A DNA stretch of 64,000 nt from Patescibacteria group bacterium (GTDB taxonomy: Bacteria > Patescibacteriota > Patescibacteriia > SG8-24). The notes under the pieces are model-generated. The model saw only the letters and a program-made list of their open reading frames with translations, had not been told where the DNA came from and searched no databases. Every line of letters begins with the position of its first letter. Position 1 is the stretch's first letter. Below are positions 8,190 to 64,000 of this stretch, in pieces. Made by a program: the position numbers and the translations under genes. The stretch spans positions 6,857-70,856 of the forward strand of contig JAQTNC010000005.1 of NCBI GenBank assembly GCA_028714475.1, read 5' to 3'.

Positions 8190-8198
8190 TTGAGCGTT

Positions 8199-10123: not shown

Positions 10124-10996
10124 ATGTCAAAAACCAGCACCGTCAAAGTCCCGCCTCAATTTGAAGAGATATTCAAAAAAAGTGAAGAAATCGTCGGCCG
10201 CTACTTCAAGGAACGGGTGGATGATCCTACTTCCGCGAAAATCGATATTTCCGGCGACCGCTACATCCTGGTTCGGGCCGCCTCAATGTCGGTGGAGTTC
10301 TTCAAGATCATATCCGAACTGTACAGTGATCGGGGGCTCGAAGAGTCAAACGCCATCGCCGCCAGCCTTCTTTTCGATTTCGCCCACGCCATCGGCAAGG
10401 CCGACGCCGAAAGCTTCCGGAAGAAGATGAATCTGATTGACCCGGTGGAAAAACTGTCCGCCGGTCCGATTCACTTCGCCTATTCCGGCTGGGCGTTCGT
10501 CGACATCTCGGAGGAAAGCAATCCGTCCCCGGACGAGAACTTCCTGCTGATTTATGACCACGTGGCCAGTTTTGAATCGGATGCCTGGATTAAAGAAGGA
10601 ATCAAGGCCGACCATCCAGTCTGCATCATGAACAGCGGTTACTCCTCCGGCTGGTGCGAGGTCAGTTTCGGCATCCCGCTGGTGTCGGTCGAACTGACCT
10701 GCCGAGCCAAAGGCGACAAGAAATGCCATTTCGTCATGGCTCCTCCGGACATGGTTGTCGGGAGGATCGCCGCGCACGTCGGCGAAGAGGGCATTCCGCA
10801 CATCGGCGAGGTTGGGAAATACGAGATTCCCGGATTTTTCGACCGCAAGATTCAGGAAGACAAGCTCCGGCAGAAGAATGTTGAATTGAAACAGCTTAAC
10901 GAAATGATGATCGGCCGCGAGGTCAAGATGGCCGAGATGAAGAAGCGGGTTGCTGATTTGGAGGCCCAACTTAAGAAACTAAGCGCAAACAAATGA
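10124..10996 (+). CDS. V4R-domain protein (putative small-molecule/hydrocarbon-binding sensor module) with a C-terminal coiled coil
   Basis: Cys pattern typical of V4R (CIMNSGYSSGWCEVSFG...ELTCRAKGDKKCHF). C-terminal roughly 60 aa are heptad-rich. The stop overlaps the start of the downstream histidine kinase (ATGA). Confidence 0.5.
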   Translation: MSKTSTVKVPPQFEEIFKKSEEIVGRYFKERVDDPTSAKIDISGDRYILVRAASMSVEFFKIISELYSDRGLEESNAIAASLLFDFAHAIGKADAESFRKKMNLIDPVEKLSAGPIHFAYSGWAFVDISEESNPSPDENFLLIYDHVASFESDAWIKEGIKADHPVCIMNSGYSSGWCEVSFGIPLVSVELTCRAKGDKKCHFVMAPPDMVVGRIAAHVGEEGIPHIGEVGKYEIPGFFDRKIQEDKLRQKNVELKQLNEMMIGREVKMAEMKKRVADLEAQLKKLSANK

Positions 10997-12582
10997 CCGG
11001 CGCGACAGCGGAAATCATCAGGCTCGCCGTCCTGGCCGCCAGCTGGGCTGTGCTGGCGTTGGCCGTCGGGATTGTGGCGCGCGATTACCTGAAAAAACGC
11101 GCTGGCGGCGGGCGGGGCGTTCGGCTTGAACGGGCCGCCATCTGGTCGTTTTCGGGCCTCGTGTTGGCGTTGGTCCTGCTGGGGGCCGTCTGGACGGCCG
11201 TCGTCCTCGTCAGTCATCTCGGCCTCGGAGTCGTCCTGCCGGTGACCGTCGCCTGGACCTCCTCGGCCCTGTTCTCCTTGTCCTGTTTGAGCCTTTGGCA
11301 TGACCGCGCCCTCCGTCTTTTCAGCGCCGCGGAAAAGGAGCTCCACCTCCAGCACGCGGACGAGCAGATGTCGAAGCGTCAGTCGATCGAGTTCGCGGAA
11401 AACGTCAAAGAAATGGAGCGGCTGAAGATTGCCCTCCTGAACCTGACGGATGACTTGCGCAGCGAGAAACAAGCGGCCCTTGAATCCAAGTCGCGCCTCC
11501 AATCGGTTTTCCGCGGCATCTCCGACGGAGTCTTCGTCGTCGGCCTTGATGGGCAAATTTCCTTGGTCAACCCGGTCATGGCCGGCTGGATCGGGGTTCC
11601 CCCGGAGTCGCTGGTCGGCCGGCCGTGGACCGATATCGTTTCATTCAGCGACGACCATGGGGAGCCGAAAAACGAATTTGTCAGGCGGCTGATGGCCGAA
11701 AAAGTCTCCCAGCCGGACTTTCATCACGACCTGATCCTGAAGACGAAGAGCGCCGACATGCCGGTTTCCGCAGCCATCTCCCCGGTCAACATCGAGGACC
11801 AGCAGTTCGGCACCGTCGTCGTCCTGCGCGACTATACCCGGGAAAAGAAGCTCGACCAGGCCAAGACCGAGTTCGTTTCCATCGCCTCCCATCAGCTGAG
11901 GACGCCCCTCACGGCCATCAACTGGTACATGGAATCCCTGCTGGCCGGCGATTTCGGGGAGCTGAAGGGCGAGGAGCGCGAGGCGCTGAACTCCATCCTG
12001 CAGTCGAGCCGGCAGATGACCAATCTGATCAGCGCCCTGCTCAATGTCGCCCGCATCGACATCGGCTATTTGCGGATACTTTCGGAGCCGGCCTCGATCA
12101 AGGAAATCTGCGAGGAGGTCATTCGGGAATCAGCCGCTCGGGTCAAGGAAAAACGGTTGAAGGTGGACTTCAGCGCCGATGACCTGCCGAAGGTGCCGCT
12201 GGACCGCAATCTCATGAAGATCGTCGCGGAGAACCTGTTCACCAACGCCGTCCGGTACACGCCGCCCGACGGCAGGATATCCGTCGAGCTTAGGCACCAG
12301 GGGGACCAGGCAATCCTGAAAGTGACTGACACCGGCTACGGCGTTCCCGCGAAACAGAAGGAGAAGATTTTTGGCAAGCTCTTTCGGGCGGACAACGTCA
12401 CCTCCCTGGTGCCGGAGGGCACTGGTCTGGGGCTGTACATCACCAAATCGATCGTCAGCCAATTCGGCGGCGACATCGGCTTCGATTCGGAGGAAGGCAA
12501 GGGGTCGACTTTTTGGGTGTCCGTGCCGCTGTCCGGTGTTGCCTCCAAGGAGGGGCGCCAAACCCTGGTCAGTATGCCGTGA
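10993..12582 (+). CDS. sensor histidine kinase (membrane, PAS, HisKA, HATPase_c)
   Basis: N-terminal TM helices, a PAS-like region, an H-box SIASHQLRTPLTAI, an N-box/G-boxes, and the ending GTGLGLYITKSIVSQFGGDIGFDSEEGKGSTFWVSVP. Confidence 0.85.
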   Translation: MTGATAEIIRLAVLAASWAVLALAVGIVARDYLKKRAGGGRGVRLERAAIWSFSGLVLALVLLGAVWTAVVLVSHLGLGVVLPVTVAWTSSALFSLSCLSLWHDRALRLFSAAEKELHLQHADEQMSKRQSIEFAENVKEMERLKIALLNLTDDLRSEKQAALESKSRLQSVFRGISDGVFVVGLDGQISLVNPVMAGWIGVPPESLVGRPWTDIVSFSDDHGEPKNEFVRRLMAEKVSQPDFHHDLILKTKSADMPVSAAISPVNIEDQQFGTVVVLRDYTREKKLDQAKTEFVSIASHQLRTPLTAINWYMESLLAGDFGELKGEEREALNSILQSSRQMTNLISALLNVARIDIGYLRILSEPASIKEICEEVIRESAARVKEKRLKVDFSADDLPKVPLDRNLMKIVAENLFTNAVRYTPPDGRISVELRHQGDQAILKVTDTGYGVPAKQKEKIFGKLFRADNVTSLVPEGTGLGLYITKSIVSQFGGDIGFDSEEGKGSTFWVSVPLSGVASKEGRQTLVSMP

Positions 12583-25379: not shown

Positions 25380-25463
25380 GTCGGCACCGTCATGCCGTGG
25401 AGGCGGGGTTCGGCGATCAGCGCCGCCCCGTCTCCGCGGCAGCAGCACCAGGCACCAACGCCC

Positions 25464-27629
25464 ATGCAGAGCGCCAGAACCAAGCTTTTGATCGCTTTTC
25501 TGTCGGCCATCGCCGTTTTTCTGGCGGTGGAAGTCGTTTTGTTCATATTTTACGCCCGCGTCGTAGGGCAATATCAGGATGTGACGAGCAACGTGCTCGT
25601 TGAGTACCGGCTGGTCGAGGCGGCTGGCGAGTTGCCGGAAGACTACAACGGTGTCCTCAAGAACCTCAACAGCCTTGAACGACGCCAGAAATATACCAGC
25701 TTGCGCGACGAGATCATCGCCACGCTGGGTACCCTCGACCAGACCATCATTTACGGCGACAGCCGCATCGCCTTCTTGAGCGTGCGCAACACGATGTTGA
25801 GTCTCATCAGCGAATGTGACGCCGGCATCGAGGAGGTCGTGCGCGGCGACTTCACGAAGATGTCGGCCCATTACGACGAGTCCTTGCGTCTGGCGGGGTT
25901 CGTCAGGGAGAGCAGCACCGCCTTGCTGCTCAAGGAGATCGAATACACCAAAAGCCTGCAGCAGGATATCGCCAAGAGCCAGAACGACGTCAGCGCGATG
26001 GCGATGGTGCTGTTCCTGTTTTTGGCGGCGGGCGGCGTGATTTTCTCGGTGGTGTTGGCGCACATGATCGTTTGGCCGGTGACGCGTTTGGCGGTCGTCG
26101 CCAAGTCATTGGCCGCCGGTTCCTTTGACGTCAAGGTCGATGATTGGCTGGCTCGGCGTGATGATGATTACGGGCGGGCTGGCCGAGACTTGGGCGTCGT
26201 GGCGGCGGAACGGAAGCGCACCGTGGAGCGGCTAAAGGAAACGGAGAGCCGGGTGGAAACAGCCAATGCGGAGTTGAAGAATGATGTTCGGCAGTTGAAT
26301 GAACTGGCGACGTCGGCGGCCGAGGCGAATGCCCGGCTGGTGATGCGGACAAGCCACGAGGAATCAGCGGGCCGGATCATCCAGGGGCTCGTGAAGTTGC
26401 CGGACGTGTCGGCAGCCAGCGAGGACGCGTTGGCCGAGATCTGGCGCCTGCTGGGCGCCGACTTGGTTCAGCTCGCGATTTTTTCCGGGGATGAGGTTCG
26501 GGAGATGGCCGTTTGGCCGCCGCTCGGCGAGAGCGAGCGATTGCGCTTGACGTCCGAAGCAGGCGGCTTTGTCGCGTATGTTGCCAAGTCGGAACAGCCA
26601 GTGGTTTCTGACCTGACTGACGAGAAAAGGTTCAGCCTTGATCCGTCGTGGGCGCATCTCGGTTACCATCGCGTCATTGGCGTGGCCGTGCCTGGGGCCG
26701 GTGGCAACGCGATCGGCTTGCTGACGGTCTGCTTTCGCAAGTCGGGTGACGGTGATGGCGTCTTGGTCGGCTTCTTGAAGACAGTCAGCGGCGCGCTCGG
26801 CCTGGCCTTGGATCGCGCCCGGGAGGTCGAGCAGGGTGCTGGTCGTGAGGCCATTCGCGACTGGCTTACGTTGGCCGTCACGCGGGATTTGCGGACGCCG
26901 CTCGCCGCCGTGCATTGGAACCTGCAGGCCGTCATGGAGGGCCGAGCGGGACACCTGGAAAAACAGCCGCTGGAATTCCTGCGCGCGACAGCAGAAACGA
27001 TGGCGATGGTTTATGGGCGGCTGGATGACATGATGACCGCCTTGGATATCGCGGAAGGGCGATTGACGATTGTCGCCGAACCGTTCCGTCCGGAAGACGT
27101 CTGGTCGCCCGTTCAGGAATCCCTCAAGGATCGGTTCGAGGCGAAGCACATCCATCTGGAATACAATCCGCCGCCGGCGCCTTTGGCGACCATCACGGCT
27201 GACCGCACGAAGACGCAAGCGGTCATGAGCAAGCTGCTCATGAATGCGCTTTCCGGCTCGCTTCCGGGCGGCACGGTTCGCGTGCGTTTGGCGCTTGAGA
27301 AAGAACGTTTCCGTTTTGAGGTGAGCGATGACGGCGTCGGTATTCCCCGCGCCGACCAAGCGGGAATTTTCCGGCTGCTCCGGCCCGGGCCAAACGCCAC
27401 CCATGAGCCGGACGCCGCCGGGTTGGAACTGTTCATCGTCAAGAGCCTCATCGAGCGACAGGGCGGCAGCGTCGGTTTCCGCAGCGAAGAGGCGCGCGGC
27501 AGCGTTTTCTGGTTTGAATTGCCGCTCGCGTACGACAAAGCCGGCGAGGCTGGCAAGAGTCCGGCCAAAACCGCCAAAGGAGAAGAACCGGGCGCCACTG
27601 GATTACGTGACGGCCAACGAACCCCCTAA
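25464..27629 (+). CDS. sensor histidine kinase (TM, HAMP, GAF-like, HisKA, HATPase_c)
   Basis: TM helix and HAMP (MIVWPVTRLAVVAKSLAAGSFDVKV). H-box region LAVTRDLRTPLAAVHWNL. HATPase ending GLELFIVKSLIERQGGSVGFRSEEARGSVFWFELP. Start chosen at Met25 of the track ORF. Confidence 0.8.
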   Translation: MQSARTKLLIAFLSAIAVFLAVEVVLFIFYARVVGQYQDVTSNVLVEYRLVEAAGELPEDYNGVLKNLNSLERRQKYTSLRDEIIATLGTLDQTIIYGDSRIAFLSVRNTMLSLISECDAGIEEVVRGDFTKMSAHYDESLRLAGFVRESSTALLLKEIEYTKSLQQDIAKSQNDVSAMAMVLFLFLAAGGVIFSVVLAHMIVWPVTRLAVVAKSLAAGSFDVKVDDWLARRDDDYGRAGRDLGVVAAERKRTVERLKETESRVETANAELKNDVRQLNELATSAAEANARLVMRTSHEESAGRIIQGLVKLPDVSAASEDALAEIWRLLGADLVQLAIFSGDEVREMAVWPPLGESERLRLTSEAGGFVAYVAKSEQPVVSDLTDEKRFSLDPSWAHLGYHRVIGVAVPGAGGNAIGLLTVCFRKSGDGDGVLVGFLKTVSGALGLALDRAREVEQGAGREAIRDWLTLAVTRDLRTPLAAVHWNLQAVMEGRAGHLEKQPLEFLRATAETMAMVYGRLDDMMTALDIAEGRLTIVAEPFRPEDVWSPVQESLKDRFEAKHIHLEYNPPPAPLATITADRTKTQAVMSKLLMNALSGSLPGGTVRVRLALEKERFRFEVSDDGVGIPRADQAGIFRLLRPGPNATHEPDAAGLELFIVKSLIERQGGSVGFRSEEARGSVFWFELPLAYDKAGEAGKSPAKTAKGEEPGATGLRDGQRTP

Positions 27630-28686: not shown

Positions 28687-31095
28687 ATGAAACTGAATTG
28701 GAAAATTTCCCTCATTTTCGTGGGTAGCGCGGTTCTTTCCACGGCCGCGGCCGCGGTTTTTTCCGGTTCTTTCGCCGCCAAACTCCTGCAGGATCGGACG
28801 GGGCAGGAAAACCAGCGCATGGCGGTCAGCGCCTTGCGCGAAATTGACACCTTGATGGACGCTGGCGCTACCGATGTCCGGGTGGTGGCCTCTGACATCA
28901 AGCTCACCGAATTCGTGTTGGGCAAGTCGACGCAAGAAATGGCTAACGCGCAGATGGCGGAATTCATTGAGCTGTGGGGTCGCTGGAACTCACTTTCCGT
29001 CGTCGGTGTTGACGGGGTGGTTTTGGCCTCTGACGACGAAAGCATAGTTGGGCATCGTTATGGCGCCGGTACCGCGGACTTCCTGTCTTTACGGCAGGCG
29101 TTGGTTTCGCCCCGCGTTTATTGCTCCGGCGCGGTTTCGAATGAACACGGTTACGGCCGTGAGTTGGTTTTTGCCTATCGGATGGTTGATGTCAACAGGC
29201 TGGGCCATCCGATCATCGCTGTTGTCGTCGGCCATCTGGCCATGGGTGCCATAGACGACGTCTTGGCCGCGACTGACGCCAACACCTATTTGGTGAGCAG
29301 CAGCGGTGAAACTGTTTCCCGCAACCTGCGTGACTACGGCCAACATCCGGTGCCGAGCCGCCTCGCGGCCTCGACGGCCGCCATTTCGCTTGAAGGCTTC
29401 CGGTTGGTCTCGTCTGATGGCGCTCTTTCCGGGACACAGGTCATCGCCGGTTACGCGAAGGAGAAGGGGTTGGGCGAATACGGCGGCAGCGGCTGGACGG
29501 CGGTGGTGGAAACGCCTGTAGCTGATCTCTCCGAGGCGGTCCGCAGCCTGACCATCTCCATGACCGTCATCCTGCTGCCGCTGTTCGTGCTGGTTTCCGG
29601 CCTGGCGATGCTGTTCGTGGCCTTTTTCGCCATCCGGCCGGCCCTGTCGCTCACCCAGACGGTGCGCTTCTTCTCCGCCGGCGACATGAGCCGGCGCTCG
29701 ACCATCGCGAGTGGCGACGAGTTCGGCGTCCTGGCCAACGCCTTCAACGAGATGGCGGAACGCGTCCAGTCTCTGCAGGGTCGCTTGTCGAATGAGGTGG
29801 GACGCAAGTCGCGCGAGCTGAAGAGGAAGATTGTCGAGTTAGCCACGCGGAACGTCGAAAAGGAAGCGACGGAGGAGCGTCTGCGCGAACAGCTTGATCG
29901 CCAGGAGGCGCTCACCAACATCGGGCGGAATCTCATCACGGCGGCAGACATCAAGACGGCCCTGGGCGTGGCCGCCGCCTCGGCCCAGCGGCTGCTCAAG
30001 GCCGACGGGGCGCACGTTATCTTGGTGGCCAGCGATGGCCATACCATAACCGACTTCGGACGAAGCGGATGCCATTGTGACCTGTCTGTTTTGGTGCCGG
30101 ATTCCGTCGAGACCGTGGCCATGAAGACCGTCGAGCCAGTCGTTTCCCTTGATTTGTCCAGGGAAAAACGGTTCAAGCTGCCCGCGAATCAGGAGGGTGT
30201 TGATTACAGCAGCATTTTGGCGGTTTCGGTGCGTGGCGAGGCCGGCAGTCCCATCGGCGCGTTTTTGGCCGCCACGCAGCGCTTGAACGGCTTCACCGCA
30301 TCCGACGCCAGCTTCATCCGTTCATTGGCCGATCTCATTGGCTTGGCCGTGGAGCGGCGGGCGGCGGCGGAGCGCATCAGCGAGTTGGGTCGGTTGCGCT
30401 CCCGCATCATCCAGATCATCTCCCGCGACTTCCGCAACCCGCTGTCCGTGGCTCGGTGGAACCTGTCCGTCCTGCTGGGCGGTCGGGCCGGACGCCTGCC
30501 TGACGAACAGCGGGATCTGGTGCGCGTCACCGAGGAGGCCGTGAGTTCGGCCAGGAATTACGTGAACGACCTGCTGGCCGCGCTGGACATTGAGGAACAC
30601 CGGGTCGTTTTTGCGCCGACGCGGTTCCGCTTGGAGGACGCTTGGCTGGCCGTGCGGGCGCACTACCTTGGTCAGTTCCAATCCAAGCACATCGCCTTGG
30701 AGTACGAGCCGCCGAAGGAACCTTTGCCGGAGGTCATCGCGGATGAGGAAAAGATCCGCGACGTCATCGGAAAGTTCACGGATAATGCCTTGTCGTACAC
30801 GCGTTTCGCCGGCACGGTCAAGGTCCGCCTGTCGTCCGTCGCCGATCGGGTTCGCTTCGAGATACAGGACACCGGCATCGGCATCCCGGCGGCTGACCAG
30901 CCGGAAATCTATCGCCGCTTCTATCGGGCATCGAACGCCGTTTATGGCCGCACCGAAGCGCCTGGCCTGGGGTTGTTCATCGCCAAGCATTTCATCGAGG
31001 AACAGGGCGGCGAGGTCGGCTTCCGAAGCGAGGAGGGGAAGGGAAGCGTGTTCTGGTTTGAGTTGCCGACCGTGAAAAGAGAAAAGTCAAAATAA
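28687..31095 (+). CDS. sensor histidine kinase (periplasmic Cache-like domain, HAMP, GAF, HisKA, HATPase_c)
   Basis: Signal/TM, a large periplasmic region, a second TM plus HAMP, a GAF-like region, an H-box (SRDFRNPLSVARWNL), and the HATPase ending GLGLFIAKHFIEEQGGEVGFRSEEGKGSVFWFELP. Confidence 0.8.
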   Translation: MKLNWKISLIFVGSAVLSTAAAAVFSGSFAAKLLQDRTGQENQRMAVSALREIDTLMDAGATDVRVVASDIKLTEFVLGKSTQEMANAQMAEFIELWGRWNSLSVVGVDGVVLASDDESIVGHRYGAGTADFLSLRQALVSPRVYCSGAVSNEHGYGRELVFAYRMVDVNRLGHPIIAVVVGHLAMGAIDDVLAATDANTYLVSSSGETVSRNLRDYGQHPVPSRLAASTAAISLEGFRLVSSDGALSGTQVIAGYAKEKGLGEYGGSGWTAVVETPVADLSEAVRSLTISMTVILLPLFVLVSGLAMLFVAFFAIRPALSLTQTVRFFSAGDMSRRSTIASGDEFGVLANAFNEMAERVQSLQGRLSNEVGRKSRELKRKIVELATRNVEKEATEERLREQLDRQEALTNIGRNLITAADIKTALGVAAASAQRLLKADGAHVILVASDGHTITDFGRSGCHCDLSVLVPDSVETVAMKTVEPVVSLDLSREKRFKLPANQEGVDYSSILAVSVRGEAGSPIGAFLAATQRLNGFTASDASFIRSLADLIGLAVERRAAAERISELGRLRSRIIQIISRDFRNPLSVARWNLSVLLGGRAGRLPDEQRDLVRVTEEAVSSARNYVNDLLAALDIEEHRVVFAPTRFRLEDAWLAVRAHYLGQFQSKHIALEYEPPKEPLPEVIADEEKIRDVIGKFTDNALSYTRFAGTVKVRLSSVADRVRFEIQDTGIGIPAADQPEIYRRFYRASNAVYGRTEAPGLGLFIAKHFIEEQGGEVGFRSEEGKGSVFWFELPTVKREKSK

Positions 31096-51395: not shown

Positions 51396-54300
51396 ATGAA
51401 CAGGCACAACAACTTCGCGGCGCGGCTCGGGGATTGGTCGATTTCCCTGGTCGGTCCGGCGGTCATCGTAGGCGTTTTAGGTTGGATGGTCGGCGTGCAA
51501 CCGGTGCTCGCGGTTGACAAGTGCAAGGATTTTGGCCTGCCGTCCTTTAAATGTCCCGCGACCGCGACCCACGACGTCTGCGGAACGTCCCCGTTTTTCT
51601 ACTGTTTTTCCGGGGCTGATGACGCCTGCACCGGCGGCACTCCGGCACCGAACTACATTTTTGACTGTGAGAGCTGCTCCTGCAAATGTGATACCGCCAA
51701 TTTTCCCTGCGCCGGCTGTGCGGCCACGTCCGTGACGCCGGGGGGGAACTGTTCCCCGCCCAACAACGGTAAATACGCGAACGGCTGTCCGGAATCCTGC
51801 ACCTGTCCTTCCGGCACGACTAGGTGCATCAGCACCAACACCTGCGTCACCAATCAGTCCTGCCCGACCGGCATGACCTTCGACCCCTGCCTTCCTGGCT
51901 GCGTCACCCCGTACATCCTGCGCAGCCCAGCCACCGTGCAGGCCAACGCTTTCATTAATATAGACGGCAACGTCAAGACCGGCGGCGACCTGTATATGGC
52001 GGACGGCAAGGCCGTGCGTCTGGACAGCGCTGGGGCGACGGTGCTCAACATCGGCAATTGGGGCGGCGGCTCGTTCGCGGTCCGCGCTTTCGGTGCCTTG
52101 ACCGCTGACGGACGGATCGGTTCCGGAGCCCCTTCGCCGGCGTATCGGTTGGACATCGTGAGTGGCACCGACACCCAGGACATCCTTAATCTCAACGATC
52201 AGGACGGCAACGCCGCCAGCCGCGTCTGGACCGGCACCCGCTTGGCGCGTGAGTCCACGGAAAAGTGGTACATCGGCATGAACGCCACTTCTGACGATTT
52301 GCTCATGTCACGTAACGGCGGCGGCGTCGGCAACACCTCAATCTTCGTGAGCAACGCGACTGGCGATGTCGGTGTCGGCACGACCAACCCGACCGGCACT
52401 CTCTCCGTCGGCAACGGCGCCGTGACCCTTTTCTCGGTGGATGGCGCGACCGGCGACGTGGTGACGGCCGGCAACCTGGCCGTGAACGGCGGCAACCTCA
52501 CGACGACCGCCGGAATCTTCAACATCGCCGGCACGGCCTCGACCGTGAACCTCGGTGGCGGCGCGGCAAGCACCGGCTGTACCTTGGATGCCGACGGCAA
52601 TTTGGTCTGTGCCGGCACCATTACCTCATCCGGTTCCGGCGGCGGCGGCGCGGTCGGCTATTGGCAGCGCGGCGGCACGACCCTTTCGCCGGCGACAACC
52701 GACGATACCATCAGTACCGGCGGCAACATCATGACCACGGGCTCGGGGAGCATCACCTCGAACGGAAACCTGACGGTCAAGGGCGTCACCGTCTTGGGCG
52801 ACAATCCGGCGACGGACACGCTGACCCTGAACCTGCTGGACGTTCTCGTGCCGGGTGGCTTGAGTATCGACGCCGGCACGCTTTACGTTGATCCGGTCAA
52901 CAATCGCGTCGGCATCAGCCAAACCATCCCCGGTTACCGGTTCGACGTCAGCGCGGACAACGATTCGACCGCCATCGTACGCATTAATGACGACCGGGAC
53001 GGCAACACCGCCACGCGGCTTTGGACCGGCACGACGCTGTCGCGAGAAAGCCTGGAAAAATGGTTCCTCGGCATGAACGGCACCGATGACGACTTCACGC
53101 TCAACCGCAACGGCGGCGGGAGCGCGCTGACCGTGCTTAACAGCAACGGCTACGTTGGCATCGGCACGGACGACCCCGCGTCCCGTCTCGACGTCAATGG
53201 AACGGTCACATCGACCGGCATCGCGCTGGCTGGCGACTACACGCAGACCTCGGGCAATTTCACCTTCTCCGGCGGTGGCACGTTCTCGACCAGCGCGGCG
53301 AACACCACCCTCGGCACGACCAACATCGTGGCTGGCAAGACCATTACCCTCGGCGCCGCGGCCGGCGACCCGGCTGGCGCGAACGGCGCGATGTACTACA
53401 ACACCACCACCAACAACTTTCGCTGTTTCCAGGGCGGTGGCTGGACGGACTGTTATTCCGACGGCGCGGCAGTCGGGAGCGGCGTGAACGGGCAGGTCGT
53501 CTTCTGGACCGGCACGCGGTCCGTGGCCGGCGACAACGGTTTCTTCTGGGACAACATCACCAAACGCCTCGGCCTCGGCACGGTTAGCCCCGCATACCCC
53601 CTGGACATCCGCAACGACGGCGCCACGGGCACGACCGAGATGCGCCTCAATAACGACAACGCGACGAGGCTCTGGACCGGTACGGCGCTGTCGCGCCAGT
53701 CGAGCGAGAAATGGTTCATCGGCATGAACAGTAGCAACGATGACTTAAGCATCACGAGGAACGGCGATACCACCTCGATGCTGTCCGTCAGCAACGCGAC
53801 CGGCGACGTGACCGTGACGAACAACCTGGCCGTGAACGGCGGCACCATCTCCACGACGGCCGCAACGTTCAACCTGGCGCCGTCGGCAACGACCGTGAAC
53901 ATCGGCGGCGGCAGCGGCTCCACCGGCTGTTCCGTGGACGTGAACGGCAACCTCATCTGTTCAGGAACCATTTCGTCTGGCGGCGGCGGCGCGGTCGGCT
54001 ATTGGCAACGCGCTGGGACGACGCTCTCGCCGGCGACGGCGGGCGACGTCATCGCCACTTCCGGTGACATCCAGACGACGGGGGCGGGCAACATCCAGAC
54101 GACGGGCACCGGCGGCATCACGTCTAACGGCAACCTCTCCGTCAAGGGCAATACGACCTTGGGCGACGCTTTCGGCGACACCTTGACCATTAGCGGCCAG
54201 GCCGTCAACATCCCGAGCGGCCTCCTTTTCGGCGGCAACGCGCTGTTTTTGAGCAACAACACCAAGCGCGTCGCCATCGGCGCCGCTTCGGCCAGCTACC

Positions 54301-57140
54301 GTCTCGACATCGTCTCGGCCAACGACTCGCAAGTCATCATGCGGCTTAATGACGACAAGAACTACCCGACGTCACGGCTCTATACCGGCACGACTCTTTC
54401 GAGGGCCGGCACCGAGAAGTGGTTCCTCGGCATGAACTCCACGGACGACGACTTCACACTCAACCGCAACGCCGGTGCCAGCTCATCGTTCACCGTCCTA
54501 AACAGCAACGGCAACGTCGGCATCGGCACGGACAACCCTGCCCAGCCGCTCGACGTGAACGGCACGGCTCAAGTGGCCGGTTTCAAGATGCCGACCGGTG
54601 CGGCGGCCGGAAAGGTACTGATGTCGGACGCCAACGGCGTCGGCACTTGGCAACCCGTGGGGGTTGGTTCTGGTGTCGTGGCTGGTTCCGGCACGGCCGG
54701 ACAGGTGACATTCTGGGACGGTTCTTCTTCCATCACCGGCGACAACGCCCTTTACTGGGACAACGCCAGTAAACAGCTCGGCGTCGGCACCAACAGTCTC
54801 GTCGCCAGGCTGACCGTGGATGCGAGCGCCGGTGGCGAGGGCTTGAGCATCGCCACTTCAGCCGCGAGCAGTCCGCTCGACATCACTTCCGGCGGGCTGT
54901 CTGTCTTCAACGTTTCTCCGAGCGGCGGCGTGACGGCCGCGGAATCAGTGACCGCACCCTACGTCGGTGGCGCTTGGGTGGACGGCTCTTACCTAAGCGT
55001 CACGGGCGACGGCACGGTCGCCCGCATCACGACCGGGCACAATGATGCGGCGGAATTCTCCCAAATCATTTATAATTCAGCGAACGGCAGTGGCATCTCG
55101 GCTTACTCTAACGGCGGGACGGCGGCTTCTTTCGGCACCGGTAACGGCGTCGGGGGCGGCGCCTTGCCTCTCCGGTTGAGCACGAATTCCGGCAACGGCA
55201 TGAAGGAAATCTTGCGTCTGACGCGCGGCATATTCGGTGCTGGCGCCAATGGTGACGGCGGCAAGATCGTGTTTGAGAACGAGAAGTCCGACCAGACTTA
55301 CGGCGAGGTGGCAGGCATCGCTGGCATCACCGCTAACGCGAACCCCCTTCAGTGGCGCGGCGCGATGGCTTTCTACACGGTTCAAGACGGCGTTGAGCGC
55401 GAACGCGTCCGCATCGCGGAAAGCGGGGCGGTCGGCATCAATACAGATTCGCCGACCGAGATGCTGGAGGTGAATGGCGGCTACATCAAGTCCAACTGGG
55501 GTTTCTGCATCAACGCATCCTGCATCACCAGCTGGCCGACGGGCGGCGGCGGAACGGTCACGGGCAGCGGGACGCCCAGCTACGTGCCGAAATGGACGGG
55601 CGCCTCGGCCTTGTCGAACTCCCTGATTTATGATACCGGCTCTAATGTCGGCATCAGCGTCACCTCGCCCCAGAGCAAATTGGACGTGCAGGGAAATTTC
55701 CGGGTCGGTGGCGGCGATGGCATCCTTAACGTCGAAGCCCGAGGCTCCACGTACGGCTCCGAGACGCTGGCCATGCAGACGACCATCGACAACCGCAAGA
55801 TCAGCGACGGCTTTCCGTATGGGGGAGATGACCGGTACGTTCTCGCCCTGCAGCCCGACTATGGCCGCGTTGGCATCGGCACGGCGAGTCCGCGCAACAA
55901 GCTGGACGTGTGGGGCGGGGAAATCAACGTTACCGGCGCCGACATCAACGGCACCGCAGTCATTACTTCGAACGCCGGCACCGCCTATTACGGGAACAAC
56001 GCCTACGACAACGGCATCGCCATCGATCCCAGCGGCAATGTCGGCATCGGCGTGGCGCCGGGAGCCAAACTGCAGGTGCAGGGCGCCGGTGGCGTCAACG
56101 TTGATATGGTGGTCAACGGCCGCATCATGACCGGCGACGCCGGGGCTTCGGGCGGCATGTGGATCGATTCGGGCATGACCCGGTTCGTGGGCGACGACGG
56201 GGCCGGGGGCGTGGGCATCTGGAACAACGGTTGGCAGTTAGGGGTTTACCCCACTTACGTTAACGTTGCCCAGGGCCTGTCGATTTGGGGCTACACCGAC
56301 CTAACCGGGTTTACCGATTGGGGCGATGCTACGGTGACAGGATACCTGACGGTCAATGGCGGACCCGGCAACGCGGCCTTTAGTGTCGCGTCTCCGGCCG
56401 ATGTCACCATGCAGGCCATCCGCGCCGACGGCACCGGCAACTATACAGCCTTGTTCAACAATAGTGGTGCCACGAATGTCGCGACGATTGGGGTCAACAG
56501 CACCAACGGTTCCGCAGCCGCTTTCTCTACGGGAAATGCGGCTAAACCCGCAGTTACCATCTCCGCATCGGACAATAATTCGCAGGCCCTGCATGTCCAT
56601 CAAGGTCGCATTGGCATTATGGTCGATTCGCCTTCTTACCCCTTGGACATAGCCGGATCAGCGCACGCCACTGGTAGCTGGTTGACGTCAGATGTCCGTT
56701 GGAAGAAGGACGTACGGACCATCGATGACGCCCTCGAAAAGGTCAATGAGTTGCGCGGCGTCACGTTCTACTGGAAGACCGTCGAGTATCCGAACAAGGG
56801 ATTTGACGATCGGCAACACCTGGGCCTGATTGCCCAGGAGGTCGAGCCGGTTCTGCCGCAGGTCGTCAGCACCGACAATCAGGGCTATAAGTCGGTCGCG
56901 TATGATACGCTGGCCGCCCTGCTCGTCGAGGCCGTCAAGGAAGTCGACCAACAGGCAGTCAAGCTGGCTCCCGATGGCAGCGTGGTGCTGACCGGTGATT
57001 TGCAGGCCAACGAAAACCGATGGGGCGCGGCCAGCAACTGGATAGCCTGCCCCGAAAAAGGCGAGTGCGCCTGCCCGAACGGCTCCTACGTGACGCAGAT
57101 AAAGGATCGTGGCACTTGGATTCAATGTCATAAGCTCTAG
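51396..57140 (+). CDS. giant secreted fibre-like protein (1914 aa) with a Cys-rich N-terminal module, many repeat modules and a C-terminal phage tail-fibre S74 intramolecular-chaperone domain
   Basis: N-terminal anchor/signal. A Cys-rich module homologous to those of 48368 and 58818. Repeats RLWTGTxLSRESxEKWFLGMNxTDDDFTLNRNGG...NSNGxVGIGTDxP. A C-terminal SDVRWKKDVRTIDDALEKVNELRGVTFYWK...QHLGLIAQEVEPVLPQVV..GYKSVAYDTLAALLVEAVKE matches the Peptidase_S74 chaperone-of-endosialidase domain. Confidence 0.75.
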   Translation: MNRHNNFAARLGDWSISLVGPAVIVGVLGWMVGVQPVLAVDKCKDFGLPSFKCPATATHDVCGTSPFFYCFSGADDACTGGTPAPNYIFDCESCSCKCDTANFPCAGCAATSVTPGGNCSPPNNGKYANGCPESCTCPSGTTRCISTNTCVTNQSCPTGMTFDPCLPGCVTPYILRSPATVQANAFINIDGNVKTGGDLYMADGKAVRLDSAGATVLNIGNWGGGSFAVRAFGALTADGRIGSGAPSPAYRLDIVSGTDTQDILNLNDQDGNAASRVWTGTRLARESTEKWYIGMNATSDDLLMSRNGGGVGNTSIFVSNATGDVGVGTTNPTGTLSVGNGAVTLFSVDGATGDVVTAGNLAVNGGNLTTTAGIFNIAGTASTVNLGGGAASTGCTLDADGNLVCAGTITSSGSGGGGAVGYWQRGGTTLSPATTDDTISTGGNIMTTGSGSITSNGNLTVKGVTVLGDNPATDTLTLNLLDVLVPGGLSIDAGTLYVDPVNNRVGISQTIPGYRFDVSADNDSTAIVRINDDRDGNTATRLWTGTTLSRESLEKWFLGMNGTDDDFTLNRNGGGSALTVLNSNGYVGIGTDDPASRLDVNGTVTSTGIALAGDYTQTSGNFTFSGGGTFSTSAANTTLGTTNIVAGKTITLGAAAGDPAGANGAMYYNTTTNNFRCFQGGGWTDCYSDGAAVGSGVNGQVVFWTGTRSVAGDNGFFWDNITKRLGLGTVSPAYPLDIRNDGATGTTEMRLNNDNATRLWTGTALSRQSSEKWFIGMNSSNDDLSITRNGDTTSMLSVSNATGDVTVTNNLAVNGGTISTTAATFNLAPSATTVNIGGGSGSTGCSVDVNGNLICSGTISSGGGGAVGYWQRAGTTLSPATAGDVIATSGDIQTTGAGNIQTTGTGGITSNGNLSVKGNTTLGDAFGDTLTISGQAVNIPSGLLFGGNALFLSNNTKRVAIGAASASYRLDIVSANDSQVIMRLNDDKNYPTSRLYTGTTLSRAGTEKWFLGMNSTDDDFTLNRNAGASSSFTVLNSNGNVGIGTDNPAQPLDVNGTAQVAGFKMPTGAAAGKVLMSDANGVGTWQPVGVGSGVVAGSGTAGQVTFWDGSSSITGDNALYWDNASKQLGVGTNSLVARLTVDASAGGEGLSIATSAASSPLDITSGGLSVFNVSPSGGVTAAESVTAPYVGGAWVDGSYLSVTGDGTVARITTGHNDAAEFSQIIYNSANGSGISAYSNGGTAASFGTGNGVGGGALPLRLSTNSGNGMKEILRLTRGIFGAGANGDGGKIVFENEKSDQTYGEVAGIAGITANANPLQWRGAMAFYTVQDGVERERVRIAESGAVGINTDSPTEMLEVNGGYIKSNWGFCINASCITSWPTGGGGTVTGSGTPSYVPKWTGASALSNSLIYDTGSNVGISVTSPQSKLDVQGNFRVGGGDGILNVEARGSTYGSETLAMQTTIDNRKISDGFPYGGDDRYVLALQPDYGRVGIGTASPRNKLDVWGGEINVTGADINGTAVITSNAGTAYYGNNAYDNGIAIDPSGNVGIGVAPGAKLQVQGAGGVNVDMVVNGRIMTGDAGASGGMWIDSGMTRFVGDDGAGGVGIWNNGWQLGVYPTYVNVAQGLSIWGYTDLTGFTDWGDATVTGYLTVNGGPGNAAFSVASPADVTMQAIRADGTGNYTALFNNSGATNVATIGVNSTNGSAAAFSTGNAAKPAVTISASDNNSQALHVHQGRIGIMVDSPSYPLDIAGSAHATGSWLTSDVRWKKDVRTIDDALEKVNELRGVTFYWKTVEYPNKGFDDRQHLGLIAQEVEPVLPQVVSTDNQGYKSVAYDTLAALLVEAVKEVDQQAVKLAPDGSVVLTGDLQANENRWGAASNWIACPEKGECACPNGSYVTQIKDRGTWIQCHKL

Positions 57141-58817: not shown

Positions 58818-59897
58818 ATGATCAATAGTCGCCAACTGATCGCCGCCAGTGCCGTGACCCTCGCGCTGCTTGTGGCCGCGCCGGCGTTGGCCAAGGACCG
58901 CTGTCGCGATTGGGGACAGCCGTCGTTCAAGTGTCCGACCACGGCCACGCGCGCGGTCTGCGGCAAGGAGCCTAACTTGTACTGCTTTGACGATCGCGGC
59001 AACCCGAACGCCGACCTTTGTTCCGGCGTCACTCCCGCGCCTCGCTTCAAGTTCGATTGCGAGACCTGCACCTGTCGGTGCGACGAGGAAAAATATCCCT
59101 GTGACGGTTGTTCTTCCGCCAAGAACGCCTTAGGCGCCACGTGCAACGGCGTCGTCGGCGGCGCCTACGTTGACCGTTGCGGCACCTGCGGCTGCGGCGC
59201 CGGCACGGCCATCTGCGTATCCACGAATACCTGCGTGACGATTGTGGACTGCCCGACTGGTTTCGGTTTCGAACCGTGTTCGGCCGCCTGTATCCCTGGT
59301 TTCGTCACCCCGACCGCGACTGTTGAGCCGCCAGTGCCGCCGTCAGGAGAAACGTCGACCGCGCCGAGTTCGGCAGCTGACCAGATTGCCGCCGCGCCTG
59401 CCGCGCCAGCCGACGGCCGTCCGGAAGAGCTTCCGGCTGGCGAGATGGGGGAGCGGCAGGCTGAAACGGCGGACGGTTCGGCTTTCGGTTGGACATTGGT
59501 CCTCCTCGCGGCCTTCGTGGCTGGCCTCGGGTTAGGCAGTTATTTCTCCGGCCGTTTCGGCCGTCCCGGGCGCGTCGAAACCCCGTTTCACGGCGTCGTG
59601 GAAAAAATCAGCGGCCGCGAATTGAGCCTGACCGTTGGGCAAGGGCGTGATCGTCGACGTCTCTCGGTGAGCGTCGGGCCAGCCGCGGAAATCAACGCCT
59701 TGACCCTGCCGGAAGAAGGCGAAGGCCGTCTTGAACGCCATCATATACCGCTTGCGTGCCTGCGGCCTCATGACACGGTGGAGGTCGCGATGACGCAAAC
59801 CAAGCCCGACAAGAAGCTGATTGCCGACTCGGTCGCGCTCATGACCACCGACGCGACGCTGGCCAGAAGGCGGGCGTGCCTGAAGGAAGATGCGTAG
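58818..59897 (+). CDS. single-pass membrane protein with an extracytoplasmic Cys-rich module homologous to the N-termini of the two giant fibre proteins, plus a cytoplasmic C-terminal domain
   Basis: Signal peptide. DRCRDWGQPSFKCPTTATRAVCGKEPNLYCF...FDCETCTCRCD aligns with DKCKDFGLPSFKCPATATHDVCGTSPFFYCF...FDCESCSCKCD of 51396. An Ala/Pro/Ser linker, TM FGWTLVLLAAFVAGLGLGSYF, then about 120 cytoplasmic residues. Confidence 0.55.
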   Translation: MINSRQLIAASAVTLALLVAAPALAKDRCRDWGQPSFKCPTTATRAVCGKEPNLYCFDDRGNPNADLCSGVTPAPRFKFDCETCTCRCDEEKYPCDGCSSAKNALGATCNGVVGGAYVDRCGTCGCGAGTAICVSTNTCVTIVDCPTGFGFEPCSAACIPGFVTPTATVEPPVPPSGETSTAPSSAADQIAAAPAAPADGRPEELPAGEMGERQAETADGSAFGWTLVLLAAFVAGLGLGSYFSGRFGRPGRVETPFHGVVEKISGRELSLTVGQGRDRRRLSVSVGPAAEINALTLPEEGEGRLERHHIPLACLRPHDTVEVAMTQTKPDKKLIADSVALMTTDATLARRRACLKEDA

Positions 59898-61185: not shown

Positions 61186-61193
61186 TGTATAAT
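61186..61193 (+). promoter_or_regulatory. extended -10 element TGTATAAT positioned 9 nt upstream of the ATG at 61203 (near-leaderless transcript)
   Basis: TGnTATAAT read directly. No good -35 element. The distance to the ATG is consistent with a leaderless or 2-3-nt-leader mRNA. Confidence 0.35.
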
Positions 61194-61202
61194 GTTAATA
61201 TC

Positions 61203-61706
61203 ATGAATTTTGCGGAAAAACCGGAAGCGCAACCGGCCGCCGCGCCGCCTGAAACCCAGGCGGAGCAGTTGGCGTCCCCGGAAAGCGGCCCGCGGCCGGA
61301 AGGGACACCGGCCCAGGAGAGAAAACAGCCCGTTCCCGTCGCGCCGATGCCGCAAATCGTCCTGCCGGACGTCGCCCCAAGCGCGGCCGCGCCGGCCAAG
61401 GACCCACAACTCATGAGGGTTGAGCGCGTGCTTGAGGACGGCTTGCTCGAGGCCTATTTGGCCATGCCGGCCAAGGAGCGCGCGCGCTTCAGGGCCGTCG
61501 GCGAGGAAACGGCCGCCAAGATTAACGTCCTGATCGAGCAGTCAAAGGCCACGGCCAAGGCCGTGTTGAAGCTCATCCGCGACTGGCTGAGGATGATTCC
61601 CGGCGTCAACCGTTTTTTCCTGGAACAGGAAGCGAAGCTGAAGACTGACCGCGTCATGCTCCTCAACGAACAGCGCCGCCGTGACAAGGAAGGGGGAACC
61701 GTATGA
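61203..61706 (+). CDS. hypothetical Pro/Ala-rich protein, translationally coupled (ATGA) to the downstream ATPase
   Basis: Start at internal Met MNFAEKPEAQP. Low-complexity N-terminus, helical C-terminus. The stop overlaps the start of the 61703 ORF. Confidence 0.35.
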   Translation: MNFAEKPEAQPAAAPPETQAEQLASPESGPRPEGTPAQERKQPVPVAPMPQIVLPDVAPSAAAPAKDPQLMRVERVLEDGLLEAYLAMPAKERARFRAVGEETAAKINVLIEQSKATAKAVLKLIRDWLRMIPGVNRFFLEQEAKLKTDRVMLLNEQRRRDKEGGTV

Positions 61707-64000
61707 CGCCGATTTTTGTCGTTTCCCCGGTGACTGCCTTGCCGGTCGAGCCAGTCGCCGCCGTACCCATCGTCTCGACGAGCGGAAGCGTTCTCTTGAC
61801 GCTGGTTTTGGTTTTTGTCGGCTTGGCCTTGGGCATCGTCGTCATCTTGAACGTCATCCGTCATTTCATGCGCCGACGCTTCCAGACCGGCGCGGCTTTC
61901 CGGCGCGTGGTCATTCTTGTGACCGTGCCGAAGGAAACGCAGGAGAAAGGCGAGTCCGGCATGAAGGAAAAGGAACTGCGCGAGATTCAGGAGGACATCG
62001 GGGTCATGGAGAGCGTTTTCGCGAGCATCGGCGGTTTGCCCGCGGAGAAGGGCATCACGTCCTGGTTTGTTGGCCGCCAGGACGCCTTTTCGTTCGAGAT
62101 TGTCTCGCAACAAGGGCTGGTCTCCTTTTATATCGCCGTCCCGGAATCGCGCAAGGATTTCATCGAACAGCAGGTTCACGCCCATTTCCCGCACGCGCAG
62201 ATCGAGGAAGTCGAGGATTACAACGTTTTCGTCCCGAACGGGGCCGTGGTGGCCGCTCGATTGCTGTTCCGTCGGATGCCGGCCTTCCCGCTCAAGACCT
62301 TCCGCAAGCTGGAGCACGATCCGCTGAACGCGCTCGCGAACGCGCTCGCCAAGGTGGACAAGGCGGATGGCGCGGCCATTCAGGTCGTCGTCCGCTCGTC
62401 GCGGCGGCGCTGGCGGCGGCGCGGCGCCAGGTTCACGAGCGCCATGCAGCAGGGCAAGACCATGAATCAGGCCTTGGCGGAGACGACTTGGCGCGGGCAG
62501 GTTCTCAAGGCGTTCATGTTGGCCAAGCCGAAGACCGTCGAACAGGGCGGCAAGGAGCACAAGCTTTCACCGCTCGAGGAAGAGATGGTCAAGTCAATGG
62601 AGGAGAAGATCTCCAAGTTCGGGCTCGATGCGAACGTGCGGGTGGTGGCGTCGGCCGCGACCGCCGAGCGCGCCAGCCTTTACGTCAACAACATCATCGG
62701 CGCTTTCAGCCAATTCAACAGCCCGCAGTACGGCAATTCCCTGGTGCGCAGCAACCCCAGCCAAAAGCGGCTCATTCATGATTTCATCTACCGTCATTTC
62801 CGCGAACGTGGCCATTTGGTGCTGAACGGCGAGGAGCTGGCGAGCATGTACCATTTTCCGCTGCCTTCGACCGAAACGCCGAACATCCGCTGGCTGACCG
62901 CGCGCAAGGCCGCGCCGCCGTCCAACCTGCCGAAGGAGGGCCTGTATCTCGGTGAAGTCGAGTATCGCGGCATCACCACGCCGGTGTTCATCAAGCCGGG
63001 CGACCGCCTGCGCCATATGTACTGCATCGGCAAGTCCGGTGCCGGCAAGTCGGAGTTCATCGCCAACCTCGCCGCGCAGGACGTGAAAAACGGCGACGGC
63101 CTCTGCATCATCGATCCGCACGGCGACCTCGTGGAAACCGTGCTCGGTTGCGTGCCGCGGGAACGGGCCGACGACGTGGTCGTGTTCGACCCATCGGACA
63201 TGGACCGGCCAATCGGTCTCAACATGCTCGAGGCCCCGAGCGAGGAGATGAAGGATTTCGTCTGCGGCGAGATGATCGCCATCTTCTACAAGCTCTTCCC
63301 GCCGGAGATGATCGGCCCGATGTTCGAGCACAACATGCGCAACTTCATGTTGACGCTCATGTCGGACCGCGACAACCCGGGTACCATCGCCGAGGTGCCG
63401 CGCCTCATCGTTGATCCGGAATACCAGAAGCAGTGGGTGAAGAAGGTCCGCGATCCGGTCGTGCTCAATTTTTGGGAGAAGGAAATCGCCAAGACCTCGG
63501 ACTTCCACAAGTCGGAGATGTTCGGCTACCTCATCTCCAAGGTCGGCCGCTTCGTCGAGAACGCGATGATGCGCAACATCATCGGCCAGCAGAAATCGGC
63601 CTTCGACTTCCGCAAGATCATGGATGAGCGGAAAATCTTCCTCGTGAACCTGTCGAAAGGCAAGATCGGCGACATCAACGCGAACCTGCTCGGTCTCATC
63701 ATCGTCACCAAGCTGCAGATGGCGGCCATGGGCCGCGCCGACATGCCGGCCAGCGAGCGCAAGCCATTCTACCTTTACATCGACGAGTTCCAGAATTTCA
63801 TCACGCCGTCCGTCGCGACGATTCTCTCCGAGGCGCGCAAATACGCCTTGAGCCTCTACTTGAGCCATCAGTACCTCGGTCAGCTTTCGCCTAAGGGCGA
63901 CAACGAGATTCGCGACGCCGTGCTCGGCAACGCCGGCACGATCATGTGCGGGCGCATCGGCGTCGAGGACGCGCAGTACCTGGAAAAAGAGTTCGCGCCG
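61703..64000 (+). CDS. membrane-anchored P-loop ATPase of the VirB4/TrbE-HerA/FtsK (DUF87-like) superfamily; 3' end beyond the window. Not present in the supplied ORF track
   Basis: Hand translation from the ATG at 61703 is open to the window end (766 codons). N-terminal TM (LLTLVLVFVGLALGIVVILNVI). Walker A at about residue 445 (MYCIGKSGAGKSEF), followed by LCIIDPHGDL. Walker B at FYLYIDEFQNF. The track lists only antisense and off-frame shadows here. Confidence 0.6.
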   Translation, partial: MTPIFVVSPVTALPVEPVAAVPIVSTSGSVLLTLVLVFVGLALGIVVILNVIRHFMRRRFQTGAAFRRVVILVTVPKETQEKGESGMKEKELREIQEDIGVMESVFASIGGLPAEKGITSWFVGRQDAFSFEIVSQQGLVSFYIAVPESRKDFIEQQVHAHFPHAQIEEVEDYNVFVPNGAVVAARLLFRRMPAFPLKTFRKLEHDPLNALANALAKVDKADGAAIQVVVRSSRRRWRRRGARFTSAMQQGKTMNQALAETTWRGQVLKAFMLAKPKTVEQGGKEHKLSPLEEEMVKSMEEKISKFGLDANVRVVASAATAERASLYVNNIIGAFSQFNSPQYGNSLVRSNPSQKRLIHDFIYRHFRERGHLVLNGEELASMYHFPLPSTETPNIRWLTARKAAPPSNLPKEGLYLGEVEYRGITTPVFIKPGDRLRHMYCIGKSGAGKSEFIANLAAQDVKNGDGLCIIDPHGDLVETVLGCVPRERADDVVVFDPSDMDRPIGLNMLEAPSEEMKDFVCGEMIAIFYKLFPPEMIGPMFEHNMRNFMLTLMSDRDNPGTIAEVPRLIVDPEYQKQWVKKVRDPVVLNFWEKEIAKTSDFHKSEMFGYLISKVGRFVENAMMRNIIGQQKSAFDFRKIMDERKIFLVNLSKGKIGDINANLLGLIIVTKLQMAAMGRADMPASERKPFYLYIDEFQNFITPSVATILSEARKYALSLYLSHQYLGQLSPKGDNEIRDAVLGNAGTIMCGRIGVEDAQYLEKEFAP

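Follow-up and report, generated by a model that had tools for sequence, protein, structure and literature searches.

Patescibacteria are dependent on other cells. The type IV coupling proteins (TrwB of R388, VirD4, TraD, Cag-beta, DotL) carry an N-terminal membrane anchor, typically of two helices, and an ATPase domain with Walker A, Walker B, a Gln motif and an all-alpha insertion, and in R388 trwA is located directly upstream of trwB. Comparable features, with a single helix as the anchor, and the same gene arrangement are described here for two adjacent genes at the end of a 64-kb stretch of DNA (the window; contig JAQTNC010000005.1 of a Patescibacteria group bacterium): a small partner gene and, behind it, a gene for a membrane-anchored ATPase, cut by the window end at base 64000. 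The pair is interpreted, with somewhat better than even confidence, as a chromosomal, vertically inherited translocation motor of the coupling-protein type with a dedicated small partner. Vertical inheritance is indicated by the gene order, conserved across lineages, and by an unremarkable GC content, equal to that of the neighbouring genes.

VirD4-type homologues number 5,713 in 2,918 Patescibacteria genomes, roughly two per genome and unexplained; only 148 of them are near virB4, and relaxases are very few (Quinonero-Coronel et al. 2025, PMC12102498). Type IV secretion system (T4SS) genes are essential for epibiotic growth in Patescibacteria (PMC12102498). The ATPase of the window has already been annotated and is an ordinary representative of a widespread family; among the coupling-protein homologues of Patescibacteria it typifies the commonest. 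The family is catalogued but uncharacterised, since the survey counts its homologues and leaves exaptation possible (PMC12102498). Added here are the putatively co-translated partner, the VirB4-like predicted fold of the N-terminal domain (DUF8128) and a stand-alone DUF8128 paralogue beside sec genes.

Description of the ATPase

The frame from the ATG at 61703 is open for 766 codons on the + strand, up to the window end. Its product is 100% identical to P0001, an 851-aa NCBI protein of a Patescibacteria metagenome-assembled genome (MAG), encoded on an 81-kb contig and named "DUF87 domain-containing protein"; the end of the gene, taken from P0001, is 85 codons (258 nt) beyond the window. Database search returned more than 2,280 homologues of 830–860 aa. 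The identical protein and these homologues exclude a chance frame. An earlier note on this DNA had reported an unlisted frame open to the window end, with listed open reading frames (ORFs) only as antisense or off-frame shadows, and a product with a transmembrane helix, GKSGAGKS, IIDPHGD and LYIDEFQNF; all of this was borne out, the motifs included, at the places given. The frame was unlisted because the ORF listing drops frames that run off an end. The shadows are antisense at 61454–62560 and 62594–63868 and off-frame at 61681–62781, in DNA of about 60% GC.

Relatives were collected by scanning one genome per species (548 relatives); 80 loci, all from Patescibacteria MAGs, were kept. The family alignment and profile comprise 115 ATPase sequences, the partner alignment 49. 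Structures are AlphaFold2 models (whole ATPase, pLDDT 90.1; DUF8128 domain alone, pLDDT 90.7). Along the whole model a helix (residues 30–66) is followed by an alpha/beta domain (68 to about 405), a RecA-like domain from residue 414 and two C-terminal helices. A helical run (514–641) is placed between strands 492–495 and 645–649 of the RecA-like domain. One hydrophobic segment is present in 103 of the 115 family members, and the count of lysine plus arginine around the membrane helix is 0.15 before it versus 3.19 after it. Helix and charge distribution place most of the protein in the cytoplasm and a short tail outside. The catalytic motifs are intact, with IIDPHGD at residues 469–475 between Walker A and Walker B; mean column identity across the family is 59%.

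By sequence, the ATPase half is assigned to the coupling-protein branch (VirD4/TrwB/TraD), not to VirB4/TrbE. Above the Pfam cut-offs are T4SS-DNA_transf (PF02534, 31.6 bits, cut-off 20.1) and TraG-D_C (PF12696, 25.6 bits, cut-off 22); TrwB_AAD_bind (PF10412) scores 20.1 bits, just under its cut-off of 20.5. The best NCBIfam matches are VirD4-like CD1115 and TraD. The sole sequence relatives in the PDB, found by profile search, are TrwB (2.8e-6) and DotL (1e-4). The family profile is aligned with TrwB by hhalign (95%, E 3.7e-8) along 260 columns that extend from Walker A across the all-alpha domain to Walker B and the Gln motif. Identity to coupling proteins is 14–16%.

Likeness to VirB4/TrbE and to HerA/DUF87 had been proposed in the earlier note. 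It stands in so far as all of these belong to the P-loop superfamily FtsK/HerA/VirB4/VirD4, a DUF87 match above cut-off is found and the N-terminal fold is VirB4-like; the ATPase domain itself goes with the coupling proteins. No sequence-level link of this domain to VirB4 was found: hhalign gives 11% probability to R388 TrwK/VirB4 and 1.6% to a Gram-positive VirB4-like ATPase (Bacillus AAA_10), over the P-loop only in both cases, and neither CagE_TrbE_VirB nor AAA_10 has a Pfam match at E ≤ 0.1. NCBIfam VirB4/TraC is matched at E about 2e-3, some seven orders of magnitude more weakly than CD1115 and TraD and far under the cut-offs.

Description of the N-terminal domain

Between the membrane helix and the motor is a domain of about 340 residues, Pfam DUF8128 (PF26449), an assignment precomputed on P0001 and on all listed homologues. 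It has no sequence relatives among known families, and no mention of DUF8128 was found in the literature searched. A phmmer search with residues 60–420 returned 2,225 cluster representatives, in which the domain is consistently N-terminal (hit positions about 40–420). For the isolated domain (model of window 61892–62932) the best 11 PDB matches are TrwK/VirB4 chains, the best with E 9.8e-6, probability 1.0 and TMq 0.45, at 7–9% identity; no TrwB, HerA or FtsK structure is in the match list of this model. The C-terminal domain of VirB4 resembles TrwB. The lack of TrwB, HerA and FtsK in the list therefore argues for a match of the predicted DUF8128 fold to the VirB4-specific N-terminal domain, at low TM-scores. 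The next match after VirB4 is a chain of the ESX-3 (type VII secretion) core complex (6umm_A, E 8.9e-4); 6sgz_D and 6sgw_D are matched more weakly.

With the whole model, Foldseek ranks R388 TrwK/VirB4 first (6e-13, about 930 aligned columns, TM-score 0.30), followed by Cag-beta, TrwB, DotL (TMt 0.5–0.63) and HerA (4d2i, 9x1m). The low TM-score to TrwK/VirB4 fits a different domain orientation. A VirB4/TrbE-type assembly ATPase, heading a secretion or pilus cluster beyond the window, would account for these structural matches, for the collinear layout of an N-terminal alpha/beta domain before a RecA-like ATPase and for a Walker A near residue 445. This explanation is very unlikely. Sequence similarity to VirB4 is not detectable beyond the P-loop, and TM-scores are low for the whole model and for the N-terminal domain alike. 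VirB4 itself lacks a membrane helix, and its gene adjoins virB3; the ATPase differs in both respects. After the end of the gene, relatives show a gene of about 220 aa, SWIB and dnaX, and VirB3, VirB4 and VirB6 are absent within 10 kb of the ATPase in the 80 relatives and on the closest long contig. Adjacent genes of virB3, virB6 or virB8 type are likewise missing in the relatives and among the window's 20 largest ORFs. The earlier note's proposal that a secretion, DNA-uptake or pilus system may begin with this gene is not supported by these neighbours, among which there is also no pilin gene within 10 kb.

A DUF8128-only paralogue occurs in Patescibacteria. It is 470–490 aa long, consists of a membrane helix and DUF8128 as in the ATPase, and is without the ATPase domain; hhalign relates it to the ATPase family at 99.6% (E 8e-24). 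Its context differs from that of the ATPase (secA, secD, secF, a two-helix mini-protein of 53–55 aa, the DUF8128 gene, dus), and no partner-like gene is upstream: the mini-ORF was considered as partner-like and rejected, being a two-helix membrane peptide. A tiny membrane protein ahead of a VirB4-NTD-like protein is reminiscent of VirB3–VirB4. No copy of the paralogue is present in the window.

Description of the partner gene

The N-terminal half of the partner is disordered and variable, with a high content of Pro, Ala and Glu. Over its last 100 residues the protein is conserved, and IPGVNRFFLEQEAKIKTD holds an invariant core; P133, F139, Q142, E143, K145 and D149 are invariant in all 49 sequences. 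No Pfam, NCBIfam or PDB family is matched, the best PDB profile match (0.076) being to an unrelated protein. In 78 of the 80 loci the partner is directly 5' of the ATPase gene (tblastn), and its stop codon is mostly -4 to +12 nt away from the start of the ATPase. A small upstream gene coupled to the ATPase had been claimed before; the start/stop overlap and the adjacency confirm it, and the partner is predicted from sequence to be co-translated with the ATPase, alongside which it is conserved.

The promoter of the partner, proposed earlier as an extended -10, is retained in part. The TATAAT is perfect. The TG abuts it in ATGTATAAT, one base off the canonical TGnTATAAT, the -35 of this candidate is weak, and a consensus scan found no full sigma-70 site. 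An exact TATAAT 4–12 nt before an in-frame start is present in 7 of 77 relatives, versus 1–4 in out-of-frame controls.

Table 1. Location of the features of the gene pair, of its DUF8128-only paralogues and of related plasmid modules (window positions, except in the last two rows, which give positions on the loci named)
Feature	Position	Strand	Basis
Partner gene, 167 aa	61203..61706	+	100% identical to P0121 (NCBI hypothetical protein PHT12_02685)
Most conserved partner motif IPGVNRFFLEQEAKLKTD, residues 132–149	61596..61649	+	Alignment of 49 sequences
TATAAT, 9 nt ahead of partner ATG; possible near-leaderless promoter, not canonical extended -10	61188..61193	+	Sequence reading
Shine-Dalgarno-like GGAAGGGGGA, 6 nt ahead of ATG 61703	61688..61697	+	Sequence reading
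ATGA start/stop overlap	61703..61706	+	Partner TGA 61704–61706 over ATPase ATG 61703–61705
ATPase gene, codons 1–766 of 851 (DUF8128 plus coupling-protein-type ATPase)	61703..64000	+	Open frame, identity to P0001, AlphaFold2 model
Single N-terminal membrane helix, N-out/C-in; hydrophobic core residues 29–52, model helix 30–66	61787..61900	+	AlphaFold2 model, family charge counts
Cytoplasmic N-terminal domain, residues ~68–405, DUF8128 (PF26449), predicted VirB4-NTD-like (N-terminal domain) fold	61904..62917	+	Precomputed Pfam, AlphaFold2, Foldseek
Coupling-protein-type nucleotide-binding domain, residue 414 onward, cut by window end	62942..64000	+	Pfam, hhalign, Foldseek
Walker A GKSGAGKS, residues 443–450	63029..63052	+	Translation; G443, G446, G448, K449 invariant (115 sequences)
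All-alpha insertion, residues ~514–641, equivalent of coupling-protein all-alpha domain	63242..63625	+	AlphaFold2 model, hhalign to TrwB
Walker B LYIDEFQNF, residues 691–699	63773..63799	+	Translation; D694, E695, F696 invariant (115 sequences)
HQ motif, H722 and Q723	63866..63871	+	Invariant (115 sequences); aligned with TrwB Gln-containing motif 'glQstsQL' after Walker B
DUF8128-only paralogue, examples	L046:19135-20601; L087/L088/L089 10001-11455	- (L046)	
Tcp-like modules with ATPase relative at head	L084 7863-17974; L085 2258-12369		e.g. pBM69, B. subtilis MH-1 plasmid

Gene neighbourhood

Clustering of neighbouring ORFs in the 80 loci gives the conserved order cysS, corA (opposite strand), partner, ATPase, gene of about 220 aa, sometimes SWIB, dnaX. 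The upstream part, from cysS to the ATPase, is matched in the window; downstream order was read in relatives, and among relatives on long contigs the closest (73% identity) has the conserved order on both sides of the ATPase. From cysS through corA, partner and ATPase to dnaX the order is kept in Uhr-, Magasanik-, Falkow- and Buchananbacteria alike. Near the gene pair, neither an integrase nor a relaxase nor a repeat boundary was found. In genomes of the class ABY1, T4SS/virB4 loci are elsewhere, near comF, recG and radA (PMC12102498).

An exact 60-mer of the window end has no match in JGI metagenomes, and a search for overlapping DNA with corA yielded only Logan contigs of 2.5–3 kb, ending before the ATPase. 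Many contigs with the gene pair (L004, L007, L009, L002, L003, L077 and others) bear the title 'uncultured Gammaproteobacteria', 'Candidatus Binatia' or 'Udaeobacter'; the MAGs in question were probably given a wrong label or binned wrongly. The gene of about 220 aa (221-aa family) has no Pfam match and is directly 3' of the ATPase in 59 of 80 loci (e.g. L038:12547-13209). Its sole PDB profile match is marginal, to DotY of the Legionella coupling complex (E 0.03–0.04), and is a lead, not evidence.

Relatives on plasmids and phages

Relatives with the full architecture were found by tblastn on 295 plasmids (Bacillus, Streptomyces, Staphylococcus, Clostridium, haloarchaea, Sulfolobus) and in 44 phage records, among them those of Bacillus phages G (gp156), SPO1 (gp27.4), JL and CP-51. 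The phage relatives are annotated as unknown (SPO1 gp27.4 at L086 4770-7490). The fold is confirmed in phage relatives by BFVD (E 3e-45 and 7e-38, TM up to 0.66), and PHROG 5156 matches the ATPase at 2.5e-67.

A Bacillus plasmid relative is aligned with the ATPase by hhalign at 99.9% (E 1.9e-36, 642 columns), at about 23% identity, and belongs to the same family over the N-terminal domain, the ATPase and the C-terminal region. On two Bacillus plasmids the relative comes first in a Tcp-like module, ahead of Replic_Relax, TcpC, TcpE and an AAA_10 VirB4-like ATPase. Judged by gene order, this is the place expected of a coupling protein. Because a full-length relative heads a conjugation module there, an ancestral role in conjugation is suggested. 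The window ATPase is without the genes that follow these relatives. The plasmid proteins differ from it in that an N-terminal membrane helix is not obvious and a partner-like gene is lacking; a search for a partner-like ORF upstream of the Bacillus plasmid relative found none. The complete-looking Tcp-like module is carried by Bacillus plasmids that MOB-suite types as 'non-mobilizable'.

The plasmid and phage relatives, with the PHROG match, are what would be expected if the gene pair were left over from an integrated conjugative element, a plasmid or a prophage and had no cellular role. That is the least probable of the explanations considered. The chromosomal position between corA and dnaX is the same across several candidate phyla, catalytic residues are invariant, mean column identity is as given above, the elements that would mark an insertion (integrase, relaxase, repeat boundary) are missing nearby, and GC content does not depart from the surroundings.

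Proposed role

By analogy with other coupling proteins, the ATPase would form a membrane-anchored hexameric ring that uses hydrolysis of nucleoside triphosphates to recruit DNA or protein and push it toward a membrane channel. The partner may bind to the motor and serve as its adaptor or regulator, as in the pairs TrwA–TrwB, TraM–TraD and CagZ–Cag-beta (8dol); it is unrelated by sequence to TrwA, TraM and CagZ. The channel would most likely be the Patescibacteria T4SS encoded elsewhere in the genome, since relaxases are almost absent in Patescibacteria and the gene is not beside virB4, and the role would be one other than plasmid conjugation.

Several observations weigh against a coupling-protein-type motor. 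All NCBIfam coupling-protein models remain far under their cut-offs on the ATPase. In canonical coupling proteins there are two membrane helices and DUF8128 is absent, whereas the ATPase has one helix and the 340-residue DUF8128 between anchor and motor. Coupling proteins are also distinguished from it by their setting: the ATPase is chromosomal, among housekeeping genes, without relaxase or mating-pair genes nearby. Genes for a T4SS channel, a relaxase or a pilin are absent within 10 kb in the 80 relatives and among the window's 20 largest ORFs; the link of the ATPase to a T4SS is therefore indirect. In Southlakia epibionticum a coupling-protein homologue is non-essential for epibiotic growth while other T4SS genes are essential (PMC12102498).

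The main rival is a housekeeping DNA translocase independent of any T4SS, an FtsK/HerA-like pump for chromosomal or incoming DNA in division, repair or competence uptake, with the partner as a DNA-binding or regulatory protein. It is possible but rather unlikely. The gene order strictly conserved among core genes, beside dnaX, agrees with it, as do the missing relaxase and T4SS neighbours; gene order shared by related lineages is weak evidence of function. DUF87 (PF01935) scores 29.7 bits, above its cut-off of 23.2, but the match is limited to the P-loop stretch (residues 426–519, profile positions 12–100 of 220). The archaeal DNA-import ATPases CedD (3.9e-5) and CedB (0.04) are weakly matched in NCBIfam, HerA is at 0.059 there, and the two HerA structures are among the Foldseek matches. 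HerA and FtsK are of the same P-loop superfamily, with similarity weaker than that to the coupling proteins, to which sequence and profile similarity is clearly highest. No Pfam match to FtsK_SpoIIIE was found, and the HAS-barrel, the FtsK gamma domain and a NurA- or MinD-type partner or neighbour are all lacking. The Bacillus plasmid relatives, moreover, are within conjugation modules. Exaptation of Patescibacteria coupling-protein homologues, which would suit a DNA translocase, is considered possible by the authors of the survey (PMC12102498).

A wider form of the coupling-protein interpretation is improbable as a whole. DUF8128 coupling proteins would keep an ancestral two-domain architecture that they share with VirB4, and so still connect the two ATPases that are the signature of the T4SS. 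In Patescibacteria a domesticated, relaxase-independent machine moving DNA or protein between epibiont and host would consist of the ATPase, the partner specific to the lineage and, beside secA/secDF, the DUF8128-only paralogue.

Other features of the window

A Peptidase_S74 (endosialidase chaperone) domain closes a 1,914-aa protein (51396–57140). A Cys-rich module at the N-terminus (…C[KR]D[FW]G.PSFKCP.TAT..VCG…) is common to this protein and to a 359-aa protein (58818–59897) adjoining cysS. A 1,003-aa ORF without Pfam match is ahead of both. The three products are probably surface proteins. Across the 64 kb no Rfam model scored as high as its gathering threshold, and hence neither a tRNA nor a riboswitch nor any other catalogued RNA was detected. 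Three sensor histidine kinases (10993–12582, 25392–27629, 28687–31095) and a Fic protein (8190–9299) are encoded in the window.

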